Shown here one piece after another: positions 2,230 through 36,017 of a stretch of DNA of 42,038 bases (its first letter is position 1; each line of letters starts with the position of its first letter). The stretch lies in the IMG/VR virus record IMGVR_UViG_3300045921_000484, positions 153,258-195,295 of that record; one strand, given 5' to 3'. The notes under the pieces are model-generated. The model saw only the letters and a program-made list of their open reading frames with translations. It was not told the origin of the DNA and searched no databases. The DNA comes from a virus (lineage: Duplodnaviria > Heunggongvirae > Uroviricota > Caudoviricetes). Made by a program: the position numbers and the translations under genes.

Positions 2230-2616
2230 ATGTTAAAGAGATATTCACAATTTATAAAAGAGGCTGATGAGACGGTAGAGAATAAAACTACTGATTCTAA
2301 TAAATTTACTGAATTCAAAGAGGAATTGAAATCTATGATTGAGAAAACTATTGAGAAATCAGGTGGTGAGTATAAATCATTTTTAGAATCATTTATAAAA
2401 AACCCAACAGATGTTAAAATTGAGGGATTGATAAATGACTCAGATATCTATGATTTTTACCTTAAATGGAGAAATGATATAGATGAAATATTAAATGATT
2501 CTAAATTCTTTGATGAGGTTCCGAGTGAGATTAACTCATTTGGATTATATGACTATATGATAAAAGGAACTCAGAGAGCTATTGAGGAAGCTGTTAAGAT
2601 GTTATCCTCTGTTTGA
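2230..2616 (+). CDS. Hypothetical protein with CTS-like leader (MLKRYSQFIKEA)
   Basis: 128-aa ORF with TAATATATA at 2217-2225 just upstream; the N-terminus resembles T4 MKTYQEFIAE. Confidence 0.75.
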   Translation: MLKRYSQFIKEADETVENKTTDSNKFTEFKEELKSMIEKTIEKSGGEYKSFLESFIKNPTDVKIEGLINDSDIYDFYLKWRNDIDEILNDSKFFDEVPSEINSFGLYDYMIKGTQRAIEEAVKMLSSV

Positions 2617-3069
2617 TGATTCTCTTTTTACTGTAAATTTTTTACTTTTCTTAGAAGTTGCCAACATTTTCATTTTTGTTCCTTTACAAGCATCTATAAG
2701 TATTTTTGATGAAACATCAACCATTCTTAATGTATTATAGATTGCAATAACTTCAACTTTATAAAACAATTCAATATAGTCAAGGCTTCTGATTATATCT
2801 TTAAGACTATTTGATTTTATCCAATTTATTGAGTCTATAACAATAAATGATGTGTCTTCCTCAATTGCGAACTCGATATCGAGCATTATAGGTGAAGTGA
2901 TGTATTTATATTTTATTTTTGGACAAGAAAGTATTTTTCTTTCTAGCGACTTATCGTTATCTAGTGCAAAATATATAACTTTTTTATTTTTTAATGATGT
3001 CTGTTTTTTTGCTATCTCTAAAGCTAAAGATGATTTACCTGAACATCCTTCACCGAAAATTATAGTCAT
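2602..3069 (-). CDS. Small P-loop NTPase, RecA-like core
   Basis: Walker A GEGCSGKS at the N-terminus and Walker B-like IVIDSIN; only 155 aa. Confidence 0.65.
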   Translation of the reverse strand: MTIIFGEGCSGKSSLALEIAKKQTSLKNKKVIYFALDNDKSLERKILSCPKIKYKYITSPIMLDIEFAIEEDTSFIVIDSINWIKSNSLKDIIRSLDYIELFYKVEVIAIYNTLRMVDVSSKILIDACKGTKMKMLATSKKSKKFTVKRESSNRG

Positions 3070-3503
3070 ATGTATGATTTAATAATACTTAAAGTATCGT
3101 AATGTAAATGAAAATGATTTATTATTAAATACAAATATACTAAAAATTTCAGTATTATAAAATGAAGTATTGCTATCTTACCAAATGAAGTAAACTTTAT
3201 AGGTCTTATTAAAAATCCTATTATTATAGAGTAAATAAAAAGAAATAAGAAAATATACCAACTACCTGTTAGTAATCCACCAAGAGCCCACATAAATTCT
3301 ATAAAATTTAGAACAGATATACCTAAGAAAAGATTTAATTCTTCTTTTGATCTATAATCTTCTTTTTGAGGATCTTTTCCGGTTACATTTTTGAATTTCT
3401 CAACCCATTCACTTATAGATTGTATCTTTTTGAATCTTGATATATATGATATTATAGATATTAAAATGAACAGACCTATAGCGTAGTATATGTGACCTAA
3501 CAT
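3066..3503 (-). CDS. Membrane protein (3-4 hydrophobic segments)
   Basis: 145 aa with several long hydrophobic stretches; overlaps the start of the next gene by 4 nt (coupling). Confidence 0.7.
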   Translation of the reverse strand: MLGHIYYAIGLFILISIISYISRFKKIQSISEWVEKFKNVTGKDPQKEDYRSKEELNLFLGISVLNFIEFMWALGGLLTGSWYIFLFLFIYSIIIGFLIRPIKFTSFGKIAILHFIILKFLVYLYLIINHFHLHYDTLSIIKSYI

Positions 3504-3619
3504 TTTTTATTATTATTATTTTTTTTTATATGTGAAAACTTGACTTTGTTTAATCCTTTTTATTACAAACAGAAGTTGTGAATAATTATATATAGTTAAT
3601 AAAATCTAATTAAAAATAA

Positions 3620-6403
3620 ATGGCCTCTACACCTCTGTATAAGTTTTTAAAGTCAAATGGTACATCATTTTATGCTTTTCCAGGAGCGGCTGAAGATATA
3701 TCTGCAGCATATCAGAATGAAAATTACAAAATGTATTTTTCAAAATATATATTGTTGAATTTTCCAAAACAACAACTTATTAATCTCGGTGGTACACAAG
3801 CAACTCCAATATATTGGAACTTTGATAATTTTAAGAAATCAAAAAATGCAACGCCTCCAACTAACTATTCTGAACAACTAATTGAGTCATTAAGAAACTA
3901 TGTTGCTAATCAAGAAGTGGTTATAAAAGAATCTAGATTAAATAATAGTGAATATTATTACGATAATAATGAACCTTATACACCAACCGAGAAAATATTT
4001 TGGAAGTGGTGTAAAAAGTTAAATCTTATAGATTTTGAACCAGCAACACCTGAAGATGAGTACTTTTCAAATCTTGCTGAATTTGCTAGTAGAAACCCAT
4101 TAGATGATACTTATTTTCCAGAATATCTTTGGAGAGAAAGAGAAGTATTTCCTTGGCCTATATACTCTTTCTATGAAAGTAATGTTATATCACAGAAGTT
4201 AGAGGTTCAATTTTTCTCAACAACTAATTTTAGAGTAGGTGATATTGTTAAATTCTCAAATGTTAGTAATGTGACTAATTATGAGATTCCTGGGATTGAG
4301 GAAGGTACATTACAAATGCAAGTTTTAAAAGTGATACCTGCTGGTGCTACACAAGGTCAAAAAGTTATTTTTGACCTTGATAGTGGTGATGGTGATTTTA
4401 TTTTAACTTCTGAGATATTAGAAACTACTGGTACTGCTGAATTGGTATATCATAGATTAGTTCAATATATTGGTGAGGTTAATGGTATTAATAATGTTCA
4501 GGAGGCTAATAGATCATATACTGAGGTATATGCTTTGATTCCTGACCATACTGGTAGAACGCCAGATGTACTATTTAGAATACATTCTGATAATAACTAT
4601 AAGCCAAATTTAGTATTTCCTATTATACCTAGTCAATATCAACCAGAGATTATAGGAGCCGAGTTATTTACATCACCAATAGTTAATACACCTCAAAATT
4701 ATCCAGGTAGTTATTTTGGTCATTTTGATACGGAAGACTATACATATGAATTATCTACCGGTGATATGATAAGAAGAAGCGGTGATTATTATGGTATAAA
4801 TGGTGATATAAATGCCCCTATTATAGACGGGTCGACAATTGATGGTGTTATAGTTGATTTTAACACAAATCACTATGTTAAAATGAATATTAATGGTGGA
4901 GTTTTAAGGACATTTGATCAATTTAATGCTCTTGAAGTTAATAATGAGCCACCAAAGGATTTTGATTTTAATGCTATATTATGGTATTATACAATAGAGG
5001 ATATTAACGGAAATGTTTCAACTAACCTTTATGGTATATCTTTCTTGGATCACCCAGATAACAACCCAGTTAATGAAGAAACTTCAATAAGACTTCCACT
5101 TTTCAAGAAGTTAGTTACTAATGGAATGCAAGATGGTACATCTTATGCGTTTAGTTTAAATCTGAGTTTCAACATTATCAATGAGAATCCACAGGATTCT
5201 TATAATCCTGAGGCTATTAATACTCTTTATAGCATGAATAACTTTAATGATGCTATGGCGAGATTAGCATCTATTAATGATAGCTTTCTTAATATACTCG
5301 CTGAACAAATTACAATAAAAGAAGAGATCGAGAATATAAGACAACTGTTATATACTCAAACTGATATTAATACATTAAATGCTAGAATGAAATATCTTGA
5401 AGGGTTACTTCAACTGTATAAAACAAATCAGATTCAAGATTCCGATAGTATAAAAGTTATTGTTGAACAATTACCAGACTTCTCATCATTGAAATTGGAA
5501 AACATAGATACTTCATATAAGCAGATTATTAAAATAAATACAACTGATTTATATACTACTCAAGGTATTATACCTATGAACATCAATGTTCCTGAGAATA
5601 AGAATTTTCTTATTCAAGTTACGAATAATGATGAAGTTGATATTACATTGCCTAATGAGGATAAATTAACAATCGTATTGGATAGAGATTTGGATTATAG
5701 ACAATCTTGTTACATTTTAGTTGATTCAAATGCTTTATCAACACAAAATAAAAAACTGGATATATATATTAAGTATATGGTTGATAGCTCAACACCGGAA
5801 GATGTGGAGAATGCTGGTTCAAATATTCAATCAAATGTTCCGGTTATTAATCCATTAGATAACTTACCAGTTGAAACACCTATTATTACTGATATAGATT
5901 TGCCAATATTTTATAATAGTGTTACTCAACAGCCTAATTTATCAAGTATAAGTAATAAGTTTAACTTTGACATTAATTTAAATCAACCTATAATATTAAA
6001 TGCAGGTAATATATTGGAGGTTCCTTTAAATGCTCATTATATGTTAGTAAATAACTCTATTAAACAGGGTGATACTTTAATGCTAAATGACTTCCAGGTT
6101 GGTACTACTTCAGTATTTAACTTCTCAGGTCAATATAGGGTTGATAGTGTTGGTGTTACCAATTCATATTTATACTTAGACATTAGTTCTAATTCTCAAT
6201 TAGTAGCTTATGGCGCAAGTGCTACACTTCCTAAATATATACATGACCCTATTGGTTATTATGGTACATATTCAACAGAGTTATCAAATATACCATATTT
6301 CACACTTAATAAGGGTTATAGATTTAAGATAACTAGAGTTGATGAGTCTAATAGTTCATCAATTGAGAATAGATATCTAATAGAAACCGAATATCTTATA
6401 TGA
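3620..6403 (+). CDS. Large putative virion structural protein (927 aa)
   Basis: Long ORF, N/T/I/D-rich beta-type composition, a short coiled-coil segment near aa 550-600, a TTATATATA motif upstream and a structural-gene neighbourhood. No specific family recognised. Confidence 0.7.
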   Translation: MASTPLYKFLKSNGTSFYAFPGAAEDISAAYQNENYKMYFSKYILLNFPKQQLINLGGTQATPIYWNFDNFKKSKNATPPTNYSEQLIESLRNYVANQEVVIKESRLNNSEYYYDNNEPYTPTEKIFWKWCKKLNLIDFEPATPEDEYFSNLAEFASRNPLDDTYFPEYLWREREVFPWPIYSFYESNVISQKLEVQFFSTTNFRVGDIVKFSNVSNVTNYEIPGIEEGTLQMQVLKVIPAGATQGQKVIFDLDSGDGDFILTSEILETTGTAELVYHRLVQYIGEVNGINNVQEANRSYTEVYALIPDHTGRTPDVLFRIHSDNNYKPNLVFPIIPSQYQPEIIGAELFTSPIVNTPQNYPGSYFGHFDTEDYTYELSTGDMIRRSGDYYGINGDINAPIIDGSTIDGVIVDFNTNHYVKMNINGGVLRTFDQFNALEVNNEPPKDFDFNAILWYYTIEDINGNVSTNLYGISFLDHPDNNPVNEETSIRLPLFKKLVTNGMQDGTSYAFSLNLSFNIINENPQDSYNPEAINTLYSMNNFNDAMARLASINDSFLNILAEQITIKEEIENIRQLLYTQTDINTLNARMKYLEGLLQLYKTNQIQDSDSIKVIVEQLPDFSSLKLENIDTSYKQIIKINTTDLYTTQGIIPMNINVPENKNFLIQVTNNDEVDITLPNEDKLTIVLDRDLDYRQSCYILVDSNALSTQNKKLDIYIKYMVDSSTPEDVENAGSNIQSNVPVINPLDNLPVETPIITDIDLPIFYNSVTQQPNLSSISNKFNFDINLNQPIILNAGNILEVPLNAHYMLVNNSIKQGDTLMLNDFQVGTTSVFNFSGQYRVDSVGVTNSYLYLDISSNSQLVAYGASATLPKYIHDPIGYYGTYSTELSNIPYFTLNKGYRFKITRVDESNSSSIENRYLIETEYLI

Positions 6404-6469
6404 ATCACACATTAGATTATAAAATGACTATTTATTTTTAATATATAAATTAAAATTAAATAGTCGTTT

Positions 6470-7609
6470 ATGTCAACAATAGGATGTGGTGGTAATTCCT
6501 TATTTGGACCTAGTAGTCAATATATAAAAACTAACGGTGGCGACTTCATTTCAATTGAAGGAGCTAATATAAGAGAGAGGCTTATACTATCGGACTTGAG
6601 GATTCCATATAAGCAGATTTTAAAAAGTAGAATAATACTAAAAGCCGGTCAGGTTAATTACTTACTAAACCATTTAGGTTTGGGTGATAATGCAACATTT
6701 TTAGCAATAAAAGCCACCTATGATGCTAAATCAGTTATTGAAGCTGATAATTATGTTATTTGGAACTATTACAACGACTTTTATAGAAACTATTACTTTG
6801 CGCAGATGATGGTATTAACCGGTAATTCTACAAACAGAGTTCAACAGATTTATCTATCTAACCCAAATACTAAATATCCGGTATATCTTGATGTGATGGT
6901 TGCAGTTATTGATGATAACTATTCATTCTTCACAGATACAATAAATCAATCAGGTAGATCATTTGTTGGTCTTGAATATACTGATATTAAAACACATATT
7001 ATTGGTGAGTCTATCGTTATAAATGATAAGAGTAATCCTCCAAGACCATTGGTTTACATAATGTTGGTCAATATACAATCTATTGAGAGAGTAGGTAATA
7101 TTTTAACAATATATGATTCAAGTTTGGGACCTATCTTCTTACAGTTTTTGACAGAGTTTGATGCTGTACAGGCTCAATCATTAATTAATTATGTATTAGA
7201 AAATCCAAGTGTTGATATAGATGATATAGATCCACTTGAAGATTTAGTTCCACCTATTATATTCTTTAACTCAACATTCAATCCTTATGGTGATTTTATT
7301 GCATTAAATGGCGCAACATATGGTGTTCCTTATAATAGTTCACAAGGTGTTACATTTAGTACAAGCACATCATTATATAGTTATGGTGGAATTATTAATA
7401 AGACTGATATACTAAATGGACTTATTGATATTGTAACAGATAATAGAGATGGTGCTATAACATTAACATCATCAAGTGTTGTTATAACCGATAATTTAAA
7501 CAATAATTATAATACTATAACAGCAACAGGATCATACATTATTACATTTAACTTTAGTGATATAGCAACTAATAGTCCTAATGTATTAGTTAATATTAAT
7601 GTTATATAA
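6470..7609 (+). CDS. Putative virion structural protein (379 aa) with Ig-like C-terminus
   Basis: TAATATATA at 6439-6447; C-terminal beta-rich segment (VTDNRDGAITL...GSYIITFNFSDIATN). Confidence 0.65.
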   Translation: MSTIGCGGNSLFGPSSQYIKTNGGDFISIEGANIRERLILSDLRIPYKQILKSRIILKAGQVNYLLNHLGLGDNATFLAIKATYDAKSVIEADNYVIWNYYNDFYRNYYFAQMMVLTGNSTNRVQQIYLSNPNTKYPVYLDVMVAVIDDNYSFFTDTINQSGRSFVGLEYTDIKTHIIGESIVINDKSNPPRPLVYIMLVNIQSIERVGNILTIYDSSLGPIFLQFLTEFDAVQAQSLINYVLENPSVDIDDIDPLEDLVPPIIFFNSTFNPYGDFIALNGATYGVPYNSSQGVTFSTSTSLYSYGGIINKTDILNGLIDIVTDNRDGAITLTSSSVVITDNLNNNYNTITATGSYIITFNFSDIATNSPNVLVNINVI

Positions 7610-7626
7610 AAATTATATTTTATTAG

Positions 7627-8586
7627 ATGAATTTTAGTTTGGATAAGTTTTTAAAGCCATTGTCGGATTCAGATAGAAATATACAGATCTACAACAATAA
7701 TGATGTAGTTCAATTTACTATTAATCCATTTTCTGTAACAAGACTTAATATATCTAATAATCTTTTGAGAATAAATTTAAAGTATAATAAGGTTCACTCA
7801 TTAGACTTTAGAACAATCAATGAAGCTAAAGCGGCTTTAATTAAATTACAGGAACAATTAGATATTTTAAGGACTAAGGTTCCTTACTCTATTGATAAGC
7901 AGATTCAGAACTATATTGACTTCAATAATAATGTTATTAGTCAACAAAATACAGGTAGTAGAAAAGGTGATATATTAATTGAAGATCTATGGGTTGAATC
8001 TAATTTAATACCAACAGATATAAATGATGCTTTATCATCCACAATAGTTGCATCATCATCTGCAACTATGAGTTGGGTTCAGAATAGTTATTCATTTGTG
8101 ATCGATCCAAACCAAAAGACAAGAGTTGTTCCGGATGATTATGGTGATTTTTATCAACCATTATTATTCTCATCAGTTGACATGACACCTATATCAGCGA
8201 CAAGTATTCCATATTGGAAAATATCAGGAGATGTAATTACATTCTATGGTGGATTTCCATCTACTCCCGTTGTTACTCCAACTAATCCACCAATTATTAA
8301 ATATTTCAAATATACTGGTAGATTAGGTAGTTTTAATTTTGTTGGTGGATTAACGAATATAATTGAGACAACAGGAACATCTAATATAATACCACTAACT
8401 TCTAATATAAGAAGAGATAATATAATATCGGTTACTATAAATGGTATATTGATTTATAGATGGACATATAATTCACTTAATGAATTGATTATTGATGAGG
8501 CGTCACTTGGTTATCAAGTTGAACCAACTGACCTTATAAGAATAGAAACTAACACTGAACCAGGTGGTAGTTTTTCAGTGATATAG
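7627..8586 (+). CDS. Putative virion structural protein (319 aa)
   Basis: Long ORF co-oriented within the structural block. Confidence 0.6.
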   Translation: MNFSLDKFLKPLSDSDRNIQIYNNNDVVQFTINPFSVTRLNISNNLLRINLKYNKVHSLDFRTINEAKAALIKLQEQLDILRTKVPYSIDKQIQNYIDFNNNVISQQNTGSRKGDILIEDLWVESNLIPTDINDALSSTIVASSSATMSWVQNSYSFVIDPNQKTRVVPDDYGDFYQPLLFSSVDMTPISATSIPYWKISGDVITFYGGFPSTPVVTPTNPPIIKYFKYTGRLGSFNFVGGLTNIIETTGTSNIIPLTSNIRRDNIISVTINGILIYRWTYNSLNELIIDEASLGYQVEPTDLIRIETNTEPGGSFSVI

Positions 8587-8639
8587 GAAAAAAATTAATA
8601 ATTTTAAATAATATATAGAATAGAAAAAAACACTACGAT

Positions 8640-10430: not shown

Positions 10431-10450
10431 TAAGGATATAAAAAAACCTC

Positions 10451-10940
10451 TCAAATTTTGAATCTTTTTTTCTTTTCGAAGTATTTTTCTCTTAATTCTT
10501 TTTTTGCCTTTGTATAAAGCCAGGCATCTATGGCATGTTGTTTTTGTCCAAAAAAGAAGTTTAATAGTTTACTGAATATTTTACCAGTCTTGTTTAATTT
10601 TCCTCTTATTTCTAAATCACCAGTTGTTGCTGAAACTGAAATATTCTTTTCTGTGAAGTGTGTTTTCTCTTCAGCTGTTATTATATCTTCTATAATTTCA
10701 CCATTTACATTCCATGCTAAATCCAATGCGTAGGCTAATTCAAATAGTGCATGTCCAATAGCTGCTGAGAATCCATCAATTAGTCTCCACCAAAAAGTGA
10801 AAAAAAGCATACCATTTTTTTAGTGATATTGATAACCATATCGAATATCCTAGTGAATATAAAGTTCCAATGCTAAATACCAATATACTCACCATAATTG
10901 CCCATATAAGAGCCCATAATCCTTGAAATAGTTCTTTCAT
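10451..10940 (-). pseudogene. Membrane protein gene (about 162 aa if joined) split by a +1 frameshift in a T7 run
   Basis: ATG at 10940 gives MKELFQGLWALIWAIMVSILVFSIGTLYSLGYSIWLSISLKKWYAFF and then runs out of frame to TGA at 10778-10776. Removing one T from the run at 10800-10806 fuses it to the track ORF (FTFWWRLIDG...). Confidence 0.7.
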
Positions 10941-10977
10941 CTTTTAGATTTATTTTTTAGTAATTTCCATTATAACA

Positions 10978-17080: not shown

Positions 17081-17119
17081 TTATATATTAAAATATAAAT
17101 CCGCTATTTTAATATATAA
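17081..17119. promoter_or_regulatory. Divergent promoter pair forming a perfect 15-bp inverted repeat
   Basis: TTATATATTAAAATA (17081-17095) and TATTTTAATATATAA (17105-17119), with a 9-nt spacer. Each arm carries TAATATATA facing its own gene. Confidence 0.7.
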
Positions 17120-17122
17120 GTT

Positions 17123-20843: not shown

Positions 20844-21195
20844 AAAAGTATCAATATTAGATTATTTAGGTAAAATAGAAAAGGGTATACTTGTTCTTGT
20901 TTCTTTTGTTTATCAAGAGAAGTATTACGAGGGTATGTTTTTTTATACCGATGAACAAATACTACTTAATGTTGATGATGATTTTGAAAAAGCTATTGGT
21001 TCTAAAATAGAACAACACAAAGAATATAAAGAAATTCTTAAATATCTAATTAGGAATGTTGTTCCTTGGAGCGAGATGATAACAAGAATTGATGAATTAG
21101 ATTTATCTATTTTTGACCCGAAAACATCCGAGACTGTTTACCTAGCAGGAGATGTTGATTCAGATGATATTACTTTTGGTGGTACTCAATCTTAG
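20836..21195 (+). CDS. Hypothetical protein (119 aa)
   Basis: Clean ORF; no motif recognised. Confidence 0.7.
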   Translation: MEIKVSILDYLGKIEKGILVLVSFVYQEKYYEGMFFYTDEQILLNVDDDFEKAIGSKIEQHKEYKEILKYLIRNVVPWSEMITRIDELDLSIFDPKTSETVYLAGDVDSDDITFGGTQS

Positions 21196-21235
21196 TTTTT
21201 ATTTTTTAATATATAATTCAAATATAATTTATCAT

Positions 21236-21607
21236 ATGAGGTATATTAAAAATTTTTCAGTTTTTGAGTCAAATAAAATTTATGCAAATATCTTAAAAAA
21301 GATAATATCAAATTATGCAAAAGATAAGCCTCTTGACGTTGAGGATGAATCATCGTTATTGGCTATATGTAAAAAGCTGGGAATTGAGCCAACCGATGTT
21401 TATAAAAATAAAATGGTTCCAAAATTTAAAGGAGTTAGCGAATCAAAAGAATCAGGATTATCCAGAAGAACTAAAAATTTCTTAAATAAGATAATTTGTG
21501 ACTATCTTAATGTTGATGAATTTGTGAAAGATAAAGACAAAATAGAAGAATTATTATCGAAATTAGGATTAAATTTTAATGAGGTTGTTGATAAATGTTA
21601 TACTTAG
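21236..21607 (+). CDS. Hypothetical protein with CTS-like leader (MRYIKNFSVFES)
   Basis: The in-frame ATG at 21236 follows TAATATATA at 21207-21215; the track start at 21152 lies inside the previous gene. Confidence 0.7.
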   Translation: MRYIKNFSVFESNKIYANILKKIISNYAKDKPLDVEDESSLLAICKKLGIEPTDVYKNKMVPKFKGVSESKESGLSRRTKNFLNKIICDYLNVDEFVKDKDKIEELLSKLGLNFNEVVDKCYT

Positions 21608-21861: not shown

Positions 21862-21872
21862 ATTCTATATAT

Positions 21873-21900
21873 TAAACTTACAAATAAAAAATGAATATAA
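21873..21900 (+). promoter_or_regulatory. Second promoter-like class TAAAC(T/A)(T/A)-N15/16-TA(T/C)AA (representative)
   Basis: Seen at 21873(+), 38565(+), 26776(-) and 3552(-), and more loosely at 27218(-), each upstream of a non-structural gene. Confidence 0.45.
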
Positions 21901-23719: not shown

Positions 23720-24808
23720 TTAAACGATAAATCTATAATCCTTAATTAAACCTCTTAATTCTTCTTCACTTTTAGGCTTGCCTATTTGGTCTAGAAAATA
23801 GATTAATCTATCAAGAATAATGGAATCCCCTTGAATAATATCCATATCATTAAATAATTCTATTTTATCTTTATCCCTGAATAAATTCCATATTTGATAG
23901 ACTAAATTATTACTACAGTAGAAATCTCCAACAATTGATTCCGGAGCACCTTCTAGTGAAGTTAGGTTGTTATTAGAACACCAGAATTCACTACCAACCC
24001 ATTTAGGACTGCCTTCTAGTGAAGTTAGGTTGTTATAGCAACAGTCAAAATCACCACCAACCGATTTAGGACTGCCTTCTAGTGAAGTTAGGTTGTTATA
24101 GGAACACTCGAAATTACCACTAACCGATTCAGGGCCGCCTTCTAGTGAAGTTAGGTTGTTATTGGAACAGATGAAATCACCACCAACCGATTTAGGGCTC
24201 CCTTCTAGTGAAGTTAGGTTGTTATTGTTGCAGTAGAAATTACCACCAACCGATTTGGGACTGCCTTCTAGTGAAGTTAGATTGTTATTGGAACAGTCGA
24301 AATAATCACCAATTGATTCGGGTGAACCTTCTAGTGAAGTTAGATTGTTATTGGAACAGTCGAAATAACCACCAATCCATTCTGGACTCCCTTCTAGTGA
24401 AATTAGATTGTTATTACGACACTCGAAATAACCACCAACCGATTTAGGACAACCTTCTAGTGAAGTTAGGTTGTTATTGTAACAGTTGAAATCTCCACCA
24501 ACCGATTTAGGACTGCCTTCTAGAGAGGTTAGTTTGTTATTGTCACAGTAGAAATTCCCACCAACCGATTCAGGACATCCTTCTAGAGAGGTTAATTTGT
24601 TATTGTGACAGATGAAATTACCGATAACATTTCTAAATTTAATGGGTAGTTTATCTAATCCTTTACCGGATAGATTGACATCACCATCTACATCAATAGA
24701 TCCATCACTATTTATAGTACAGTTCTCTATACCATATTCCTTACATATCAACTCAATATCTCCCCCGGTAGATTCAAATAATCTATATTGAATTAGGTGT
24801 TTCATCAT
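23720..24808 (-). CDS. LRR-like repeat protein, paralogue A (11 repeats), with CTS-like leader
   Basis: MMKHLIQYRLFES start; 11 copies of F-x-C-x-x-N-x-LTSLEG-x-P; TAATATATA at 24810-24818. Confidence 0.85.
   Translation of the reverse strand: MMKHLIQYRLFESTGGDIELICKEYGIENCTINSDGSIDVDGDVNLSGKGLDKLPIKFRNVIGNFICHNNKLTSLEGCPESVGGNFYCDNNKLTSLEGSPKSVGGDFNCYNNNLTSLEGCPKSVGGYFECRNNNLISLEGSPEWIGGYFDCSNNNLTSLEGSPESIGDYFDCSNNNLTSLEGSPKSVGGNFYCNNNNLTSLEGSPKSVGGDFICSNNNLTSLEGGPESVSGNFECSYNNLTSLEGSPKSVGGDFDCCYNNLTSLEGSPKWVGSEFWCSNNNLTSLEGAPESIVGDFYCSNNLVYQIWNLFRDKDKIELFNDMDIIQGDSIILDRLIYFLDQIGKPKSEEELRGLIKDYRFIV
23925..24620 (-). repeat. Eleven in-frame 63-bp (21-aa) tandem repeats
   Basis: The core CCTTCTAG recurs at 23949, 24012, 24075, 24138, 24201, 24264, 24327, 24390, 24453, 24516 and 24579 (period exactly 63). 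Confidence 0.95.
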
Positions 24809-24815
24809 CTATATA

Positions 24816-25523
24816 TTAAGTTACAAATCTATAACCCTTAATAACCCTTCTTAATTCTTCTTCACTTTTAGGCTTGCCTATTTGGTCTAGAAAATCGATT
24901 AATCTATCAAGAACAATTGAATCCCCTTGGATAATATCCATATCATTAAATAATTCTATTTTATCTTTATCTCTAAATAAATTCCATATCTGTTCTACTG
25001 GATTATATTGACAGTAGAAATCTCCGCCGATTAATTCCGGAGCACCTTCTAGTGAAGTTAGTTTGTTATTGAAACATTTGAAATCTCCACCAACCCATTT
25101 AGGACCACCTTTTAGTGAAGTTAGGTTGTTATTGTAACAGTAGAAATTACCACCAACCGATTTAGGACTCCCTTTTAGTGAAGTTAGGTTGTTATTGTAA
25201 CAGTCGAAATAACCACCAATTGATTCCGGTGCGCCTTCTAGTGAAGTTAGATTGTTATTGGAACAGTAGAAACCATCACCGACACATTTAGGACTGCCTT
25301 CTAGAGAAATTAGTTTGTTATTGTAACAGTCGAAATTACCACTTACGTTTTTAAATTTAAGAGGTAGTTTATATAATTCTTTACCGGATAGATCAACATT
25401 ACCATCCACATCAATAGATCCAGCTTCATTTATAGTAAAATTTTGTATACTATATTTCTCACAGATAGATTCAATATCCTGATTAGACTCAAATAATCTA
25501 TATTTAATTAGGTGTTTCATCAT
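24816..25523 (-). CDS. LRR-like repeat protein, paralogue B (5 repeats), with CTS-like leader
   Basis: MMKHLIKYRLFES start; 5 repeats; the C-terminal ~55 aa are nearly identical to paralogue A; TAATATATA at 25525-25533. Confidence 0.85.
   Translation of the reverse strand: MMKHLIKYRLFESNQDIESICEKYSIQNFTINEAGSIDVDGNVDLSGKELYKLPLKFKNVSGNFDCYNNKLISLEGSPKCVGDGFYCSNNNLTSLEGAPESIGGYFDCYNNNLTSLKGSPKSVGGNFYCYNNNLTSLKGGPKWVGGDFKCFNNKLTSLEGAPELIGGDFYCQYNPVEQIWNLFRDKDKIELFNDMDIIQGDSIVLDRLIDFLDQIGKPKSEEELRRVIKGYRFVT
25010..25340 (-). repeat. Five in-frame 63-bp tandem repeats
   Basis: Cores at 25045, 25108, 25171, 25234 and 25297. Confidence 0.9.
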
Positions 25524-25565
25524 CTATATATTAAATACCAATAATTTAATATATATTAAATAGTC

Positions 25566-27185: not shown

Positions 27186-27215
27186 AAATGTTTTATTAAA
27201 AAAATAAAACTAAGT

Positions 27216-27905: not shown

Positions 27906-30900
27906 TGTTCTATACTTAAATTATTATTTCCTATACTATTAGTATTAATATTATCAGAGCATTCAATATGATATTTATAATCCCAAGTGGATTTGAATAT
28001 AAAGAAATCTATAATAGCGTATCCAAATTCATCTAACATGGGGTATATTGATTTGTAGTCTTTTCTATCCTTTAGCTTCATTATATTTTTATTAGGATTA
28101 ACTTTAGATATAATTCTTTGTTTTATTTTTCCAAAATTTGTAAGTGATGTATCGAATTTATAATTACCATATAATGATGTTGTTAATCCTGGCCTTTCAA
28201 ATAATTCAATTTCATAAAATATTGGCATATAATATCCACTGTGTCTATAAACATTATTATAAACCGTATTGACTAACCCATGTGTGTTTTTAACTAATAC
28301 CCTTTGTGGTTCTTTATCTGACACTCTAAACTCTTCTTTCCTTGAAATTTTATAAGATAGTGGTAATCCGTTATAATAGTTTAGATTATCAATATTATCA
28401 ATAATTCCTCCCTTTAATTGTTTATTAGATTTTAGTAAATTATTCGGAACCTCAACAACTTCATGTTTTAGTGAATCAACTCTAACATTAAATTCATCAG
28501 GAAAGTCACATTTTATTAAATGTGGTAATCCAACCATATTTTGATAGTTATATGTATTAATAGACCCATCTTCATTTATTATTACATAGTTTAGATAATC
28601 GGTGAATCCATATCTATTAGTTATGTCATTTATACAGTTTATTAGATTAACAGCTGTTAATTTAGAATTAATTGGACTCTTTAATCCATTTTTTGTATAT
28701 TTAAGATTCCTCTGATATAAAGCGAATCCATATAAGTCATCTCTATCAGCTCCAGATATATTCTTTATTGTATTGTCATTTATCGCTATATTAATAAGTA
28801 TATTTTTCCACTTTTTATTTATGTAGATATTTATACCATTTTCAAGTGTTGATCTTGTCTCATTACTTTTTATTATGTAATATTTATCATTTAGTAATAT
28901 TACTGGATTAGTATCCGAATCATAAACTATATTAGTATCTGGATCTATTGAACAAACTCTTGACCAATATAATGTATTTGTTGGTAAGTAATTTACCGAT
29001 GTTGTAATACATCTATAAACGGTATTATTATAAACAACAATATCACCAAAAATATATGTTTTATTAAAGTTCCAGAGTGATACTATTTTCCATCTAGACA
29101 TGGATTCATATCCAGATGTCTTTTCCCAATACTGATTGAAGTAATTAGATGTTGTATCAATGTCTGTCATTCTACTTGTTACAGTAGAAGGTCTATGTGT
29201 GTTATTACCAACTTTGGATATCCAATACTCACCTTTATAGATAACAACACTATTTGTAGCATATGTAGAATATGGATTCCATAAGGATACTGTGCCTGAT
29301 GAATCATACTTATAATATTCGCCAGAATTGTATATTACATATCCGTCTGTATATGACGCATCATAGTTTGGATTCCAAAGTATTGAAGATGTTGGTGATA
29401 CAAATTGACTAGGTGACCATACACTTGTGTATGAATAAGGAGCAAGTATATTATTTGATATGGAATTTATTGGACCATGTGCTGTAGCAGCAACATATAA
29501 TATATCATCATGTACTACTATTGAGTTTGATTCATATGATTGTCTTGAATCCCAATTATCAACAATTAGCCAATTCATTTTATTTGAAAGACTTGTATTT
29601 GATACACAAACATTACCCGAACATGAAGAAGTTATTGATATAGGATTTTCATCTTCATCCATTAGACTTATAAGTAAACTATTTCCTAATTGGTATGTAC
29701 TTCCTACATAAACATTTGATAGAGAAATACAAGAGGATGTTATTGACAATAAATCACCAACTAAAATTTTATCTGAGTCACCGTTATTTATTTCAAAAAT
29801 ATACTCAGATGTTAAAGCTAATGGTGGATTAGTTAGATCCTCTACAAGTTGATCTCTCCATCCACCCGGAATATATGTTTGAAAACTATAGCAAGTTGTT
29901 GTTACGGAAGGCTTTTTATTATCTGATAATAATATAGATAATTTGTAATCCTCAAACTTATTTGAAGTTACTAGGTTTATATTGGTTATTTTGCCATCCT
30001 CATATTTAATATTTTCTATATCAAATATTGAGAATTTAATTCCTCTGAAAAGAGAAATATTCGGAGTATCAAAATCACCTCTATTGAATGTAGAATACTT
30101 TTTAGTATTCTTAATCACTTTACCATTTTGAAATTTTGTCTTCTTACTAAAGAAGTATGAAAAATAGTCCGAACTATATGTCATAGATTGTGTGCCAACC
30201 GAATATGTTGATGTATTTAGATATAATCCCAAGTCAAACCTAAATGATGTGTTAATATAATCACCGATATGATCCTCTACATGCAAAGAGTGGTGAGAAT
30301 ATGATGATGTTGATGAGTTTATAGTATAGAAATAATCAAGATTTCTTTCTATTCTTGAAGGAATAGGTTGAAATGGATTTACGGTTCTATTATATTCCTC
30401 AAAGATATTCGAATTATTCAATAAGTATGGATAATCATTTGCTGATAAAGAGTTTTGAAATCCCCATCTACAATAAATTGGATTCTTCCTCCATATTTCA
30501 GAAAGATCATTACTCACAATCCTGAATGTTTCAAGATTTGCTGTATATTCAGATGATACTGGAATATTTGTAACTTCACCTTTATAAACATAATCATCTA
30601 AATCATACGGGAAGCTATTGGTTCTTAAATCCGGAAGATACATTTTTGTCTCATCGGTCTTAGTCAATTCATCAACTTTTTCGTACTCATATTTAGAGAA
30701 TTCCGTATCAACAATTGATGTGTCAAAGTCTTTAATATCTGTGAAGTTAATTCTATAAATTTTAAATTTCTTAGGAGCATTGTCTTTATCAACTAATAGA
30801 CTAACAGTAGTTGTATATGATTTATCTGGTTGATTTATGTAATAACTATACTTATCGATTAAAAAATCAAATCCATAATCAGTATTTACTTTTAATTTAT

Positions 30901-32221
30901 CATCTTCTTTAACTATATTGTGATATTTACCATCAATTTCTATTAGCCAAACATCGGCTTTGTCAAAGTCAGGTATACTAAAATATGAGTAATCACTATA
31001 TCTTATAATATAATTGTCTTTGTCAAAAAGACAGATATTTTTATTCAGATAGGATTCTTTACCAGATAAGCTTATATCACTTACTATTCTATATCTATAA
31101 ATATCTGTAGTTATAAACTCTTCAGATGATACAGTACTTTTTCGATTGATTGATGTATTTACTTTACCAATAGTTCTAGGTTGAGTTTCTTTATATTGCT
31201 CAATTTTATAAAAATCACCTAAATATTCAACATAGTATTCTTTTTTTGAAAAATCAAGGTCTGATTTATTATCATCAAATGGATAGTTAGAGGTGTGTGA
31301 TTTTAATGTATTAGTAGAATCTATATATACGTCACTCTTTAATTTAACTGTTAAGTATGGTGATATTGATGTTACTAAATCCATATCATCTAAATAAAAA
31401 CCATAATATCTATTTATGCTCCATTTTCTAAGTGATGTCTTAGTTGCTGGAGTATCATCAAAAAGGAAAGACATATTTAATATATTTGGAAACACTACTC
31501 TATTTTTAGCGTATCCATCAAATATAAACTTCTCTAAATCGAAAATGGCATTCTCATATTCAAATACATCATTCATAAAGAATGATTTATATGTATATCC
31601 ACCTGTATCATAATCGATACCAAACCATTTAGTAAACTCATCTTTTCTATAATCTACCTCTAATGGTGTATCAGGGAAAAGATCATTTCTAAGGAAGTTC
31701 TTTTCTATCCATTCTCCTAATGGTGAATTCTTTGTTAGGTCAAATATTTTAACACACTTCAATTTATTAATTATTTCACTTTTAAAGTTATCCTTAGTTA
31801 GATCAATTAAACCAGGACCATCTACTCGGAATATTGCAAAATATTTTGGAAAAGATCCTTTTGCAAAGTAAATAGGAGCGAAGAATTCATATTCCTCTTT
31901 ATAGTTTTTATTATCAATAATATTCCTAGCACCCATTAAATACATATCATCATATTGTTCATTATAATTAGAAAACATGTTATCATTATCATTATTGTAT
32001 CTAATGGAAAAAGCTATCTCAGTTGGTAGATTTTTGAAAAAATAAGGAACCATTTCATCAAAATAGTTCTCTTTATTAAACCTAACTTTTTTAAATTTAT
32101 TAGATGATAGTTCTGGAGCAGAGTCAATACTATCCATGAATAGATCATAGTTACTACCAACCACTATTTTCATATTGGTTGTTAATCCAGTATTTGTCCT
32201 TAGTATTGAGAATGATTTCAT
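27902..32221 (-). CDS. Very large putative virion protein (1439 aa) with tandem CBM5/12-like modules
   Basis: Four W-x4-5-Y-x2-(G/N)-x2-V-x-Y-x-G/N motifs near aa 890-1085; coupled to its neighbours. Confidence 0.7.
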   Translation of the reverse strand: MKSFSILRTNTGLTTNMKIVVGSNYDLFMDSIDSAPELSSNKFKKVRFNKENYFDEMVPYFFKNLPTEIAFSIRYNNDNDNMFSNYNEQYDDMYLMGARNIIDNKNYKEEYEFFAPIYFAKGSFPKYFAIFRVDGPGLIDLTKDNFKSEIINKLKCVKIFDLTKNSPLGEWIEKNFLRNDLFPDTPLEVDYRKDEFTKWFGIDYDTGGYTYKSFFMNDVFEYENAIFDLEKFIFDGYAKNRVVFPNILNMSFLFDDTPATKTSLRKWSINRYYGFYLDDMDLVTSISPYLTVKLKSDVYIDSTNTLKSHTSNYPFDDNKSDLDFSKKEYYVEYLGDFYKIEQYKETQPRTIGKVNTSINRKSTVSSEEFITTDIYRYRIVSDISLSGKESYLNKNICLFDKDNYIIRYSDYSYFSIPDFDKADVWLIEIDGKYHNIVKEDDKLKVNTDYGFDFLIDKYSYYINQPDKSYTTTVSLLVDKDNAPKKFKIYRINFTDIKDFDTSIVDTEFSKYEYEKVDELTKTDETKMYLPDLRTNSFPYDLDDYVYKGEVTNIPVSSEYTANLETFRIVSNDLSEIWRKNPIYCRWGFQNSLSANDYPYLLNNSNIFEEYNRTVNPFQPIPSRIERNLDYFYTINSSTSSYSHHSLHVEDHIGDYINTSFRFDLGLYLNTSTYSVGTQSMTYSSDYFSYFFSKKTKFQNGKVIKNTKKYSTFNRGDFDTPNISLFRGIKFSIFDIENIKYEDGKITNINLVTSNKFEDYKLSILLSDNKKPSVTTTCYSFQTYIPGGWRDQLVEDLTNPPLALTSEYIFEINNGDSDKILVGDLLSITSSCISLSNVYVGSTYQLGNSLLISLMDEDENPISITSSCSGNVCVSNTSLSNKMNWLIVDNWDSRQSYESNSIVVHDDILYVAATAHGPINSISNNILAPYSYTSVWSPSQFVSPTSSILWNPNYDASYTDGYVIYNSGEYYKYDSSGTVSLWNPYSTYATNSVVIYKGEYWISKVGNNTHRPSTVTSRMTDIDTTSNYFNQYWEKTSGYESMSRWKIVSLWNFNKTYIFGDIVVYNNTVYRCITTSVNYLPTNTLYWSRVCSIDPDTNIVYDSDTNPVILLNDKYYIIKSNETRSTLENGINIYINKKWKNILINIAINDNTIKNISGADRDDLYGFALYQRNLKYTKNGLKSPINSKLTAVNLINCINDITNRYGFTDYLNYVIINEDGSINTYNYQNMVGLPHLIKCDFPDEFNVRVDSLKHEVVEVPNNLLKSNKQLKGGIIDNIDNLNYYNGLPLSYKISRKEEFRVSDKEPQRVLVKNTHGLVNTVYNNVYRHSGYYMPIFYEIELFERPGLTTSLYGNYKFDTSLTNFGKIKQRIISKVNPNKNIMKLKDRKDYKSIYPMLDEFGYAIIDFFIFKSTWDYKYHIECSDNINTNSIGNNNLSIEQ

Positions 32222-35200
32222 TATGTAATTGACATGTTTATTGGTGTAGCTACTTTTTTAAGTACTACTTTGCTTCTATTTATATTAAACTTAATTGAGA
32301 ATTGAAAAGGTTTGTTTTCAGATTCATTTTCAACAAAGAATTTAAGTTTCTTTATATGTTTAATGGTACTTGTAGATGAGTTCAAATCAATATATTCATA
32401 ATTTAATCCACCTTGACTTGGATCAAGCGCATTCATTTTGAAGTAGATATTTATAGGTATTACAATCGATTTATCATCACCTCCATTTAAAACTTTTATT
32501 TTATCAGCATTTGTTTCTGTTATATCCTCTAAATTTGGAACAACAGGATGAATTGTGGTTAATAGTTTAGATGTTGAAGCAACACTCACTGTTGTATCAA
32601 TCCATTTCTTAGTATCTAATAGTGATTTATTATTACCAACAAAAGATAATATAGATGTTTCATTATATCCAATATTAAACTCGTTGGATGCTAATACCGA
32701 AGTTATTGAGTTATTATTATTTGCTATAAAATTATTATTTATATTTTCAGATAACTTAGTTACAACAGTATCAGTTACACTTTCGAAGTTAACACTCCAT
32801 ATAAATTGATTATTCAACTGAGTTCTTGTCTGACCAGTTGATGAAGATGATAATAATTCATCCTTGTCATTTACCCAGAATACTTGTGGTGCACCAGCAT
32901 TATAAATATCAGAATTTGAATTATAAGTCCTATTTGATAATAAACCTAGTGGTGAATCAACAGACTTATTTCTAATCTTTAATACAAAGTCTTTTATTAC
33001 ATAAATATTGTTTGCATAAATTCTACCCGCTTGAACTTGTCTAGTGTTAGCAGAACCTATAAATCTTTCTAAGTAATCTTCACATTCTATATTGAATGAT
33101 AATTCAGATCCATTTTGAACAACAAATTCTTGGTTATTCCTAAGTACAATAATTTCAAGCTCACCTTTAGCTCTTTTAATTTTCTCCTCAAGTGATATTA
33201 TTCTGTCTTGAAGACTTTTCAAATAATCAAATAAACTAAGAGATACACCATTAGCATCTTTGAATCCTGATAGAATCTTTGTTGTATCATGATGATAAGT
33301 TACATTATTAACAACTATCGTTCCTGATAAGTGGTTGTCTAAACCTTTAGCTGATAACTCTTGATTCATTCTAACTTTTAGCTCTTCTTTAGTGGCTTCT
33401 TGTAAAATAAAGTCATTTTCATTAACAACATTATTAAGATCATCTGGAAATTCAACTGTAAGAATCTCTGACCAATCAGATTCAACCGGTGATTCTGGCC
33501 AACCAACTTCTGAAATAGATTTAATTCTTATCTCAATTTTTTCATTTGGCTGTATTGGTATATCCAATTGATTGATATTTGGAGTGTCTGCATTTTCAAT
33601 ATCCTCAATCTCCCAAGTATATGTTCCAGTAGATGGATTAAATGTTCTCTTTCTAGCATCAGTTTTGAATTCTATCCAGTTAGAATATGCTGCGTTTTGA
33701 CTAGTTCCTTGATTATTAGAAACTCTGAATGTTTCAGTTGGTGTTTCTCTACCATCTTTAGACAAATATCTATATTGTATTCTAAACTGAACAATCTCTT
33801 GAGGAAATGTACCTCTTGTTACAATAGCTTCAGGCATTGGCCAGAAACCTCTAACTCTAAACTTAGGCTCAACTTTAGTTAGACCAGGTCTTTTAGAGAT
33901 ATCAATTATCTCTTGAGTTATAGATGCTAGTAATTTCGATTTACTTTCTCTCTTTTTACTAAGAGATTCTATTTCTAAGTTGATCTGTTTTTTGTCAGCT
34001 TCGGAAGTGAATCTTAAAACTTTATCCTTTTTATTCTTTGACTCAATAGCATCATTTATCTGAGTAATTTCAGATTTTAATGAATTCATTAAGTTATGCT
34101 TTGTCTTAATTAAATTAGCATCGGGTGTATCAGTTAAATGCTTATTAATCTGGACAACTTTGAAGTTTGATATATTTAAAGTTGGTGGTGTTGGAGTACC
34201 CGCTAATTTATTAGGTGTCTTCTTAGCAACAAGGTCTTTTAAAACTTCACCATAATCATATACATAATCGATATAGTACTGTTCCATAGTTAGACCATTA
34301 TCGTTACTACTAGATGATAATCTAAGATCATTTGTCCAATATCCTGTACCTAAGCTCCAATTTTTAGCAACCAAATGATTATCAGCATTTATTGGTTTGA
34401 TGAAAAGGACATTTCTCTCATTATAACCTATACTAACTCTTATTTTCTTAGTATAAACGATTGGAGAATACATTTTAATAGTACCTATTCCAATTGGAAT
34501 TGGTTGATTACCTTCTATTCTCTCGAATCTAACTCTGTAATTTGATTCAACTGTTGATACCTCAATTACTTTATATCTTGTGCTAGATATTTCAGCATTT
34601 AACATCACTTCATCACCTTGTGATAATTGTCTAACTTCATTTGTTTCAGTTACAAGATAATCAAGTGTATTTAAGTGATACCATAGTTTTCTATTAAGTC
34701 TATCTTCTTCTGTTTTTAAAACAGAGAATACCCCATCATATAATAAAGAATTTGGTTCCAAGTCAAATACTTGTTCGTCATAATTAGGATTTAATGGTTC
34801 AACAACACCAGGTGTTGTTCTGTGCCAAATAACAAAATCATCAATGTTGATGTTTGCTTTTCCTCTAAATTCTTGATTGAAGCTATTTAGAGCTGACTGA
34901 CCAAGTGGTGTTAAATTTCCTGCCTCATCTTTTGCAAAATCAACGATATATCTTCTTACTAAACACTTTCTAACATTGTTTTCTATTTTACCAGTTAGAT
35001 CCAATTCAATAGACAATAGTGGATTTAATAATCCATCAAATATCCAGTTTTTACTTGATTTAAAGCTATCTACAATTTGAAGTTCATTTAGACTAGCAGG
35101 TTCTTTATTCAAATCAACAGTAACAACTTTCTTAAACTTATTAATACCAGCCGCAGTTTGTATAAGAGCTCCATTGCTATTATCAATATTATAAATGGAG

Positions 35201-35418
35201 TTAACATTATTATTTAATCTATCAATTTCATTCTTTAAGAAATTAAATGATGGAAGTGTATATTGTTTCAAAACACCTTCCTCATCAATGATTGATACGT
35301 TTACAGTTGACTCTGTTGTTGTAGAAAGAGTGTTTATTTTAGATAAAATTTCTACTAAATTTTTATTAAATGTTATTATTTGTTCTGCTACTGATGGAAA
35401 TGAGCTTCTTGCTGGCAT
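32221..35418 (-). CDS. Large putative virion protein (1065 aa) with coiled coils and an FN3-like segment
   Basis: Heptad segments, EKIEIRIKSISEVG...SDWSE beta-sandwich end; TAATATATA at 35440-35448. Confidence 0.7.
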   Translation of the reverse strand: MPARSSFPSVAEQIITFNKNLVEILSKINTLSTTTESTVNVSIIDEEGVLKQYTLPSFNFLKNEIDRLNNNVNSIYNIDNSNGALIQTAAGINKFKKVVTVDLNKEPASLNELQIVDSFKSSKNWIFDGLLNPLLSIELDLTGKIENNVRKCLVRRYIVDFAKDEAGNLTPLGQSALNSFNQEFRGKANINIDDFVIWHRTTPGVVEPLNPNYDEQVFDLEPNSLLYDGVFSVLKTEEDRLNRKLWYHLNTLDYLVTETNEVRQLSQGDEVMLNAEISSTRYKVIEVSTVESNYRVRFERIEGNQPIPIGIGTIKMYSPIVYTKKIRVSIGYNERNVLFIKPINADNHLVAKNWSLGTGYWTNDLRLSSSSNDNGLTMEQYYIDYVYDYGEVLKDLVAKKTPNKLAGTPTPPTLNISNFKVVQINKHLTDTPDANLIKTKHNLMNSLKSEITQINDAIESKNKKDKVLRFTSEADKKQINLEIESLSKKRESKSKLLASITQEIIDISKRPGLTKVEPKFRVRGFWPMPEAIVTRGTFPQEIVQFRIQYRYLSKDGRETPTETFRVSNNQGTSQNAAYSNWIEFKTDARKRTFNPSTGTYTWEIEDIENADTPNINQLDIPIQPNEKIEIRIKSISEVGWPESPVESDWSEILTVEFPDDLNNVVNENDFILQEATKEELKVRMNQELSAKGLDNHLSGTIVVNNVTYHHDTTKILSGFKDANGVSLSLFDYLKSLQDRIISLEEKIKRAKGELEIIVLRNNQEFVVQNGSELSFNIECEDYLERFIGSANTRQVQAGRIYANNIYVIKDFVLKIRNKSVDSPLGLLSNRTYNSNSDIYNAGAPQVFWVNDKDELLSSSSTGQTRTQLNNQFIWSVNFESVTDTVVTKLSENINNNFIANNNNSITSVLASNEFNIGYNETSILSFVGNNKSLLDTKKWIDTTVSVASTSKLLTTIHPVVPNLEDITETNADKIKVLNGGDDKSIVIPINIYFKMNALDPSQGGLNYEYIDLNSSTSTIKHIKKLKFFVENESENKPFQFSIKFNINRSKVVLKKVATPINMSIT

Positions 35419-35513
35419 AGTTTAGCTATTAATTTTTCTTATATATTAAATTCTACTCATTTCTTTAGTATTTGTTTTTTTTTATTTTTATATAGGATTG
35501 CTTTCTAATAAAT

Positions 35514-35545
35514 AAAAAAACCCTCAAATTTCTCTGAGGGGTTTT
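35514..35545 (-). terminator. Rho-independent terminator
   Basis: Minus strand CCCTCA-gagaaatt-TGAGGG followed by a T7 run, immediately at the stop of the gene above. Confidence 0.7.
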
Positions 35546-36017
35546 ATGATTCTACTTCAACTACATATTGACCGTGGTAAGTTTTGAAATCCGGTTTTCT
35601 CATAACTGTTATAACAGTTAATTTAAACTCATTATCACCCGGTTCTAATTGACAAACAACATTTATATTATTTGTCTTATTCTTTATAACAAATCTGTTT
35701 GGTTCACCAGCTTTAACGCCCTTTGTTGGATAATCATCTTCATTCTGATAAATATCAAATTTATTCTGCATTAAAGCTATTGTGATTTCTTCTATTGCTA
35801 ATTCTATCGTTTCAATTATATCATTATCTGATATAACTTCATCTTTCATACCACCATGTCTAAATTGTCTATCAGTAGCATGTTGTATCTTTTCAATATC
35901 TATTCTTATCTCAACAGGCTCTTTAAGATATCCAATACTCTTAGGAGCTTTAAATGACATAGCTTTTCTATCAATATACCCACGAGTGAATCTTTCAAAT
36001 GTTCTTAGATGATTCAT
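35544..36017 (-). CDS. CTS-like leader (MNHLRTFE) plus a RelE/DUF4258-like domain
   Basis: ATG 36017 preferred to TTG 36032; contains HA-x-x-R-x-x-R-H...IS..DI and a terminal VVC...VITV pattern. Confidence 0.55.
   Translation of the reverse strand: MNHLRTFERFTRGYIDRKAMSFKAPKSIGYLKEPVEIRIDIEKIQHATDRQFRHGGMKDEVISDNDIIETIELAIEEITIALMQNKFDIYQNEDDYPTKGVKAGEPNRFVIKNKTNNINVVCQLEPGDNEFKLTVITVMRKPDFKTYHGQYVVEVES

Follow-up and report, generated by a model that had tools for sequence, protein, structure and literature searches.

Introduction

The internal proteins of bacteriophage T4 carry a capsid-targeting sequence (CTS), which was reportedly described by Mullaney and Black in 1996. The tag reads MKTYQEFIAE (PMC8442874); it is present on IPI, IPII and IPIII and in the Alt propeptide and is removed by the protease gp21 (PMC9026906, PMC3012670). 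Suppressor scanning assigned residues 4 and 7 to targeting and residues 8 and 10 to processing, and gp21 cuts after L/I-x-E (PMC9026906). Here, we analyze a stretch of 42,038 nt (bases 153,258-195,295 of the 195,295-bp IMG/VR contig, record IMGVR_UViG_3300045921_000484; "the window" in the following) from a huge phage, in which nine genes start with a leader peptide resembling this tag. We estimate a probability of roughly 0.6 that the leader serves as a propeptide for capsid targeting, as in T4, and is removed by a protease. The head of this phage is thus probably loaded with a very large number of diverse proteins.

Like the T4 CTS, the leader comprises about 10 residues after the initiator Met, with positions 4 and 7 hydrophobic or aromatic and, in most cases, [ILF]-x-E following, and it stands on unrelated proteins in a genome with a gp20-type portal, a gp23-type capsid protein and a gp21-type protease. 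While T4 tags a handful of proteins, about 50 are tagged in the 195 kb of the contig and 107 in a 483-kb relative. Further differences from T4 are the acidic cargo, the three sequence sub-types of the leader and the fusion of the protease to a scaffold of tandem tag-like repeats. The polymorphic internal-protein loci of T-even phages (PMC3012670) also consist of fast-changing genes, most of them orphans, in which nothing but the N-terminal tag is kept, but there are one or two such loci, whereas the tagged genes are spread over the whole genome here. The inner-body/ejection proteins of phiKZ, 201phi2-1 and SPN3US are processed by gp175/gp245 at S/A/G-x-E (PMC9026906, PMC7411985). These are giant phages as well, in which about 20-50 head proteins are trimmed after Glu by a gp21 relative and a large cargo is delivered with the DNA. 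However, their propeptides are long and dissimilar with no common short tag, P3 of the cleavage motif is a small residue instead of a hydrophobic one, and the capsid lineage is different. That T4-like phages can use the tag to load diverse proteins has already been suggested in reviews (PMC9026906, PMC3012670). A literature search gave no paper in which huge phages are connected with capsid targeting, and a 2026 jumbo-phage review does not mention it. The principle is textbook knowledge for T4, and the gain lies in scale, lineage and mechanism: new are the lineage (385-735 kb), the share of the genes (16-20%), the closeness to the T4 determinants and the tag-like scaffold repeats.

Distribution and Anatomy of the Leader

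The leader was followed through the whole contig and through a second genome, a 483-kb relative (G001; 98% complete, 651 open reading frames (ORFs)). A leader profile lacking the Met column was run over all six frames of the contig, and almost all of the best matches lay directly after an initiator Met. The leader classifier identified 46 of the 241 ORFs of the contig, and about six more were absent from the gene call. In G001, 107 of the 651 gene starts (16%) were classified as leaders, compared with 3 of 2228 internal Met sites (0.13%). The tagged share of the genes amounted to 16-20%, about one in five or six. The heptad [YFW]xx[FY][LIVM]xE was found 10 times at N-termini of the phage's own proteome, while shuffling gave an expectation of 1.3; 11 copies were present in the scaffold protein and 17 elsewhere (shuffle expectation for all internal positions, about 10). 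No comparable leader family was seen in 75 kb of Tenacibaculum phage PTm1. The Lak-B5 locus (28.5-70.4 kb of MK250024.1) was excluded from the comparison, as its coding fraction with table 11 was 0.69 and its ORFs were short. Stop-codon recoding has been reported for Lak phages and fits this low value.

For a closer description, 153 leaders were aligned on their first aromatic residue. The consensus was M-K-[Y/H]-[L/I]-K-[K/T]-[Y/F]-x-x-[F/Y]-x-E, with a length of 10-12 residues directly after the initiator Met. The first aromatic residue (Y/F/W) was position 7 in 100 of the leaders, and position 4 was L/I in 87%. We distinguished three types: type A, M-x-K-K-Y-x-x-F-I-x-E (e.g., M-I-K-K-Y-L-E-F-I-K-E); type B, M-K-[HY]-[LI]-[KR]-x-F-[NE]-E-[SN]; and type C, M-K-H-L-I-x-Y-R-L-F-E-S, on a family of leucine-rich repeat (LRR) proteins. 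In type A, the residues essential in T4 (Y4, F7, I8, E10) are present with identical spacing.

The same pattern was seen among orthologues. In 12 orthologues of the 319-aa protein of the window (52-72% identical), the invariant residues are exactly K4, Y6, F9, I10 and E12; intervening residues vary, and indels set in right after the Glu. A 167-aa protein is encoded at the opposite end of the head module, and its orthologues retain the pattern with widely differing residues (e.g., MKIKTFIKYLEN, MIQKYKRFTERV, MKLKKYDSYLKED). A hydrophobic residue occupies P3 of the first Glu after the aromatic residue in about 70% of the 153 leaders and in eight of the nine in the window. At P3, F and I/L are equally frequent, and S, N and E predominate at P1'.

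Head Module and Tag-Like Scaffold Repeats

The contig has a G+C content of 28.8% and a CheckV completeness of 34%. Its major capsid protein shares 77% identity with that of the uncultured huge phage LR756502.1 (642 kb), 52-54% with those of LR756504 (636 kb) and LR756501 (735 kb), and about 28-29% with those of the Lak phages and of PTm1, the nearest cultured relative. Three IMG/VR relatives, judged to be 95-98% complete, measure 385-483 kb. By sequence relationship the phage is a member of the LR756502/LR756501 clade of huge phages (385-735 kb). A megablast search with 7.5 kb of the window gave no match among GenBank phages.

A T4-type head module is located at 1.9-11.5 kb of the contig on the minus strand, outside the window. 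Besides a portal (PF07230, E = 7e-60) and the major capsid protein (PF07068, E = 4e-29), it encodes a fusion protein of 692 aa. The N-terminal ~270 residues of this protein represent a head-maturation protease (phrog_207, E = 2e-29), and a coiled-coil scaffold makes up the rest. PF03420 matched the 692-aa protein only weakly and below threshold by direct scan, and a six-frame search of the contig with this family found nothing. The protease part could be aligned with T4 gp21 with 27% identity over 150 residues (pairwise E = 9e-6), and the alignment spans the His and Ser motifs GE.[ND]HP and SSR.G. The N-terminus of the protease, L-I-V-E/N (here and below, a slash follows the Glu after which the cut would fall), parallels L-L-I-E/T of T4 gp21.

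The scaffold half of the 692-aa protein contains about 11 tandem units of 14 residues, N-I-A-Y-S-E-Y-[I/L]-A-E-N-L-D-K, at residues ~290-440, followed by an acidic low-complexity stretch. Y-x-E-Y-[ILV]-A-E is present in 8-13 copies in this genome and in all 78 relatives with a whole protease-scaffold gene. The repeats are also found in LR756504 and LR756501 and are degenerate in the more distant LR756500. The scaffold heptad agrees with the type A leader and is almost the same as the heptad of the T4 tag, Y-Q-E-F-I-A-E. The leader as a whole, a short amphipathic N-terminal helix of the form M-K-x-[LI]-K-x-[FY]-..-[F/I/L]-x-E, resembles one scaffold unit, NIAYSEY[IL]AE/NLDK. A related sequence stands in the propeptide of the capsid protein, where W-M-S-E-Y-A-E-[YF]-H-S-I-N-E/N is conserved ~40 residues before the conserved mature domain, at a position comparable to the T4 cut site. 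According to the T4 record, core proteins of T4 themselves start tag-like (gp22, MLKEQLIAEA; Inh, MIDKDYIAEL; gp21, MNEPQLLIET; gp24, MAKINELLRES). Imitation of a scaffold segment by the leader would be the most economical model for these likenesses.

The capsid propeptide was also compared among about 58 relatives. Its first ~50 residues were almost invariant (WMSEYAE[YF]HSINE/NAY) and were followed by a variable Gly/Pro/Ser-rich spacer and then by the mature domain.

Proteins Carrying the Leader

The lengths of the tagged proteins range from 30 to about 670 aa, and most of them are orphans. Small tagged genes are present inside the head module and also form tandem arrays, for example at 184.9-187.2 kb of G001. 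Pfam searches with 18 tagged proteins of the contig revealed only LRR, ankyrin and a weak RuvA_C-like match. More families were recognized in G001, where 83 tagged proteins of at least 110 aa were searched and 19 different families were found. These included a PolyA_pol/CCA-type nucleotidyltransferase (E = 2e-30), a T4-type RNA ligase 1 (E = 3e-21), a NUDIX protein (E = 1e-13), an SLT lytic transglycosylase (E = 1e-11), methyltransferase and GNAT domains, and ankyrin repeats. A 2H phosphoesterase (2'-5' RNA ligase superfamily) matched Acb1 with E = 9e-6, just below the Pfam threshold. A wall-degrading enzyme is a classic virion passenger, and tagged RNA-repair and signal-degrading enzymes would make sense as counter-defence at time zero.

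A Promoter-Like Box Upstream of Leader Genes

The sequence TAATATATA was present within 50 nt upstream of 26 of the 46 leader genes of the contig and of 37 of the 195 other genes (odds ratio 5.6, p = 1e-6). The corresponding numbers in G001 were 52 of 107 and 73 of 544, and when operons were allowed for, 90 of the 107 leader genes and 190 of the 544 others belonged to a unit headed by the box. Exact copies are located upstream of the portal, protease-scaffold and fibre-like genes and of the gene preceding that for the tail sheath; close variants precede the capsid and sheath genes. The DNA polymerase, helicase and DnaB genes had no such box. It is plausible from this distribution that TAATATATA is a late promoter element.

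The distance between the box and the ATG was bimodal, with either 1-9 nt (mostly 4-5) or 18-30 nt (examples in the window are 2217-2229, 17110-17122 and 21207-21235). If the box functions as a -10-like element, the short-distance class suggests leaderless or near-leaderless mRNAs.

A 158-aa protein family, encoded next to the portal gene, suggested that the tag is a separable module. Nine members start with MKHLRKFEEL-DYSTY and have the TAATATATA box. Seven members start at M-[NK]-Y-[ST]-T-Y, exactly where the tag ends; these have TAT[CA]TTTG(T) 20-35 nt upstream and no tag box. We take this motif to be the -7 box TAnnTTTG of Bacteroidota promoters. The two forms fit a protein that is needed early and would be either transcribed early or made late with a tag and carried in. 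Only one further, weak case of a family with mixed leader states was found. Avoidance of TAnnTTTG by the leader genes of this genome was not significant (3 of 46 versus 21 of 195), the motif being too common in DNA with 29% G+C.

Probable Capsid Targeting and Alternative Explanations

If the leader acts as the T4 tag does, a tagged protein would be drawn into the scaffold core during prohead assembly. The scaffold-fused gp21-like protease would cut the scaffold repeats and the propeptide of the capsid protein after hydrophobic-x-Glu, and the same protease would remove the tag after the tag's own Glu. The mature protein would stay inside the head and could then leave it along with the DNA. We infer core binding, cleavage after Glu, residence in the virion, ejection and an anti-defence role from the likeness to T4.

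The first-pass annotation, which had interpreted the leader as a T4-like capsid-targeting sequence, was borne out in several respects: the resemblance is real, the spacing of the four defined residues is kept, a gp21-like protease, a portal and a capsid protein are encoded in the genome, the scaffold repeats share the heptad, and the leader is linked to the box of the head genes. It had also held that a motif equally common in early non-virion genes would speak against packaging. In the gene call of the contig, the tag was found on no core replication protein and on no core structural protein, and as far as the sequence tells, the motif is not that common in early genes.

Several points weigh against capsid targeting. 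The clade has no cultured member, and packaging and cleavage are predicted from sequence. The mature parts of the tagged proteins are acidic (median isoelectric point (pI) 4.9-5.2, 61-81% below pI 6), while the internal proteins of T4 are basic, and about 30% of the leaders have no hydrophobic P3 before the first Glu (e.g., K-T-F-E). Exact copies of TAATATATA also precede a UvsX-like gene and a homing endonuclease gene, and variants with one mismatch precede the RNR, SbcD and PhoH-like genes; late timing of the box is therefore only plausible. The tree of the 158-aa protein bodies needs one change between leader and no leader only, which is a single event and not a statistic. To our knowledge, no head cargo described so far comes near a figure of over 100 different tagged proteins in each genome, or 16-20% of the genes, and we know of no phage with an RNA ligase, a CCA-type enzyme or a methyltransferase among its capsid contents.

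The very large number of tagged proteins, the enzymes that are unexpected inside heads, the acidic cargo and the leaders that do not fit hydrophobic-x-E would all be compatible with a docking helix for some other common partner, for example a chaperone, a tag-modifying enzyme or a factor for sorting to another late structure or compartment, with no relation to the capsid. This is in our view unlikely. A docking helix leaves the match to the four T4 determinants and to the scaffold repeat unexplained, and the small tagged genes sit in the head module. As for a radical-SAM maturase as the partner, no match to PF04055 was obtained in the 195-kb contig, which comprises about 34% of the genome.

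The association of the leader with the box raised the question of whether a mobile 5' cassette of promoter box, start codon and first codons was spread by recombination to the various gene starts, with the peptide as a functionless passenger. Such exchange of promoter and gene start between genes is a feature of PeSLs, mobile promoter-stem-loop cassettes of T4-type phages that were reportedly described by Arbiol et al. in 2010 and are said to contain early promoters and to be non-coding. The joint exchange of promoter and leader in the 158-aa family and the ~45 nt of upstream sequence that the LRR paralogues have in common would fit this explanation. However, outside the LRR paralogues and one cassette subfamily, the leaders differ in upstream DNA and in codons, the distance from box to ATG falls into two classes, and a box within 50 nt is missing in 20 of the 46 leader genes. 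For K, F, Y, E, L, I, H, N, S and R, the leaders use synonymous codons at frequencies equal to those of the whole genome, and we concluded from this that the constraint acts on the peptide. Y, F, I and E stay unchanged in orthologues in spite of drift in the DNA and in the adjacent residues, and orthologues of the 167-aa protein keep the pattern with different letters. In contrast to PeSLs, the conserved part is thus a peptide under selection at the amino-acid level, linked to a box common to head genes, and a mobile cassette appears very improbable as the cause of the leader.

In a third explanation, the leader would only reflect AT-rich codon usage (Lys, Asn, Ile, Phe, Tyr) together with the common preference for A-rich codons behind the start codon, perhaps in connection with translation of leaderless mRNA. 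This would suit the low G+C content (29%) and the many boxes only 4-5 nt before the ATG, but it is effectively refuted by the internal Met sites (0.13% versus 16% at gene starts) and the shuffles (1.3 heptads expected versus 10 seen), and codon choice shows no constraint at the DNA level and the leader occurs with both classes of box spacing.

Capsid targeting thus remains the reading that we favor. A more far-reaching version of it can be put forward only tentatively: megaphages of 385-735 kb might load more than 100 varied and rapidly exchanged proteins per head by means of a tag that mimics a scaffold unit, including RNA-repair enzymes, NUDIX and 2H hydrolases, a transglycosylase and LRR/ankyrin binders, so that a sixth of the genome would be a time-zero payload, partly swappable as cassettes. 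Provided that the tag functions in the same way as that of T4, it could be read from sequence which proteins uncultured huge phages package and inject. Much of the puzzling extra coding capacity of huge phages would then be pre-made cargo and not genes expressed after entry, and hundreds of orphan proteins would become candidates for host takeover or counter-defence. It would further suggest that the T4 tag arose by imitation of a scaffold segment together with its cleavage site, and a further portable tag, in addition to that of T4, would become available for the loading of phage capsids with proteins.

Leader Genes of the Window and Further Features

All nine start codons and N-terminal peptides listed by the first-pass annotation for the window were found exactly at the positions given in Table 1. 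Its count of at least nine is a large underestimate for the phage, with about 50 leader genes in the contig and over 100 in each complete genome. The statement that the bodies are unrelated except for two LRR proteins also held: without the first 14 residues, the LRR pair matched with E = 4e-92 and all other pairs with E > 0.3. The box, said to stand upstream of seven of the genes, was found as an exact copy within 60 nt in six of them (Table 1).

Table 1. Positions of the leader genes of the window and of further features discussed in the text. Plain numbers are positions in the window; box, TAATATATA.
Feature	Position	Strand	N-terminus and leader type	Box	Remarks
Leader gene, 128 aa	2230..2616	+	MLKRYSQFIKE/A, type A (Y-x-x-F-I-x-E)	2217-2225	Box 4 nt before ATG
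Leader gene, 319 aa	17123..18082	+	MKLKKYIDFISE/S, type A	17110-17118	
Tiny leader ORF, 35 aa	18100..18207	+	MNKIRRFNE/S, type B	No own box	Downstream of 17123, same strand
Leader gene, 184 aa	18280..18834	+	MKYLRKFNE/N, type B		After 17123, same strand
Leader gene, 123 aa	21236..21607	+	MRYIKNFSVFE/S	21207-21215	Box 20 nt before ATG; in-frame internal start within longer ORF 21152-21607
Tiny leader ORF, 31 aa	21766..21861	-	MIKNLVKFNE/S	21866-21874	
Leader gene, 362 aa	23720..24808	-	M-MKHLIQYRLFE/S	24810-24818	Leucine-rich repeats after leader
Leader gene, 235 aa	24816..25523	-	M-MKHLIKYRLFE/S	25525-25533, 25550-25558	Leucine-rich repeats after leader
Leader gene, 157 aa	35544..36017	-	MNHLRTFE/R, type B	No box	No hydrophobic P3
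Very short leader ORF, 12 codons	from 36147	-		Present	
Very large gene, 1439 aa	27902-32221	-			CBM_5_12
Very large gene, 1065 aa	32221-35418	-		Present	phrog_29329
Major capsid protein gene	L005:4622-6313	-			Outside window; PF07068
Protease-scaffold fusion gene, 692 aa	L005:6396-8474	-		Present	Outside window
NFACT-R protein gene, 230 aa	L005:3850-4542	-			Adjoins capsid gene
Homing endonuclease gene, HNH type	L005:12334-13920	+		Upstream	
Homing endonuclease gene, HNH type	L007:5897-7600	+			Directly after tail-sheath gene
T4-type RNA ligase 1 gene, 421 aa	L126:18129-19391 (G001)	+	MKKLSKYLEFINES		Ligase domain starts only at residue 77
2H phosphoesterase + RNase T exonuclease gene, 436 aa	L126:4046-5353 (G001)	-	MLKKYKEFIKES		

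No Pfam family was assigned to the 128-aa and 184-aa proteins. A search of IMG/VR yielded one partial relative only for the 184-aa protein and no relative for the 157-aa protein. In an AlphaFold2 (AF2) model of the 319-aa protein, residues 1-13 form a detached helix of low confidence, and the body (residues 94-319) has a predicted local distance difference test (pLDDT) value of about 90. Foldseek found no match for this model in the PDB at E <= 0.001.

The two LRR proteins of the window are 68% identical. About 12 LRR paralogues are present genome-wide in tandem arrays, in the window at 23720-25558 and in the genome at 22.3-26.1, 109.2-110.8 and 131.1-133.2 kb. The upstream sequence that they have in common is the 3' end of the preceding copy, including the box, and points to recent duplication or gene conversion.

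The three very short leader-bearing ORFs of the window (35 and 31 aa and 12 codons, the latter two with a box) are possibly remnants of decayed or truncated tagged genes, which would indicate rapid turnover.

Next to the capsid gene lies a gene for a 230-aa protein with a C-terminal NFACT-R (RNA-binding) domain. The orthologue in G001 has only 129 aa and starts with the leader MIKKYNYFFES, where the protein of the contig reads ...IMNFSLFNES. The gene of the contig may be a fusion, or its true start may be at Met103.

Two very large adjoining genes in the window probably encode tail or baseplate parts. The 1439-aa product contains a carbohydrate-binding module, and the only match of the 1065-aa product was to a family of unknown function (Table 1). 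Large genes for homing endonucleases of the HNH type were present at two positions, one of them with a TAATATATA box upstream and the other directly after the tail-sheath gene.

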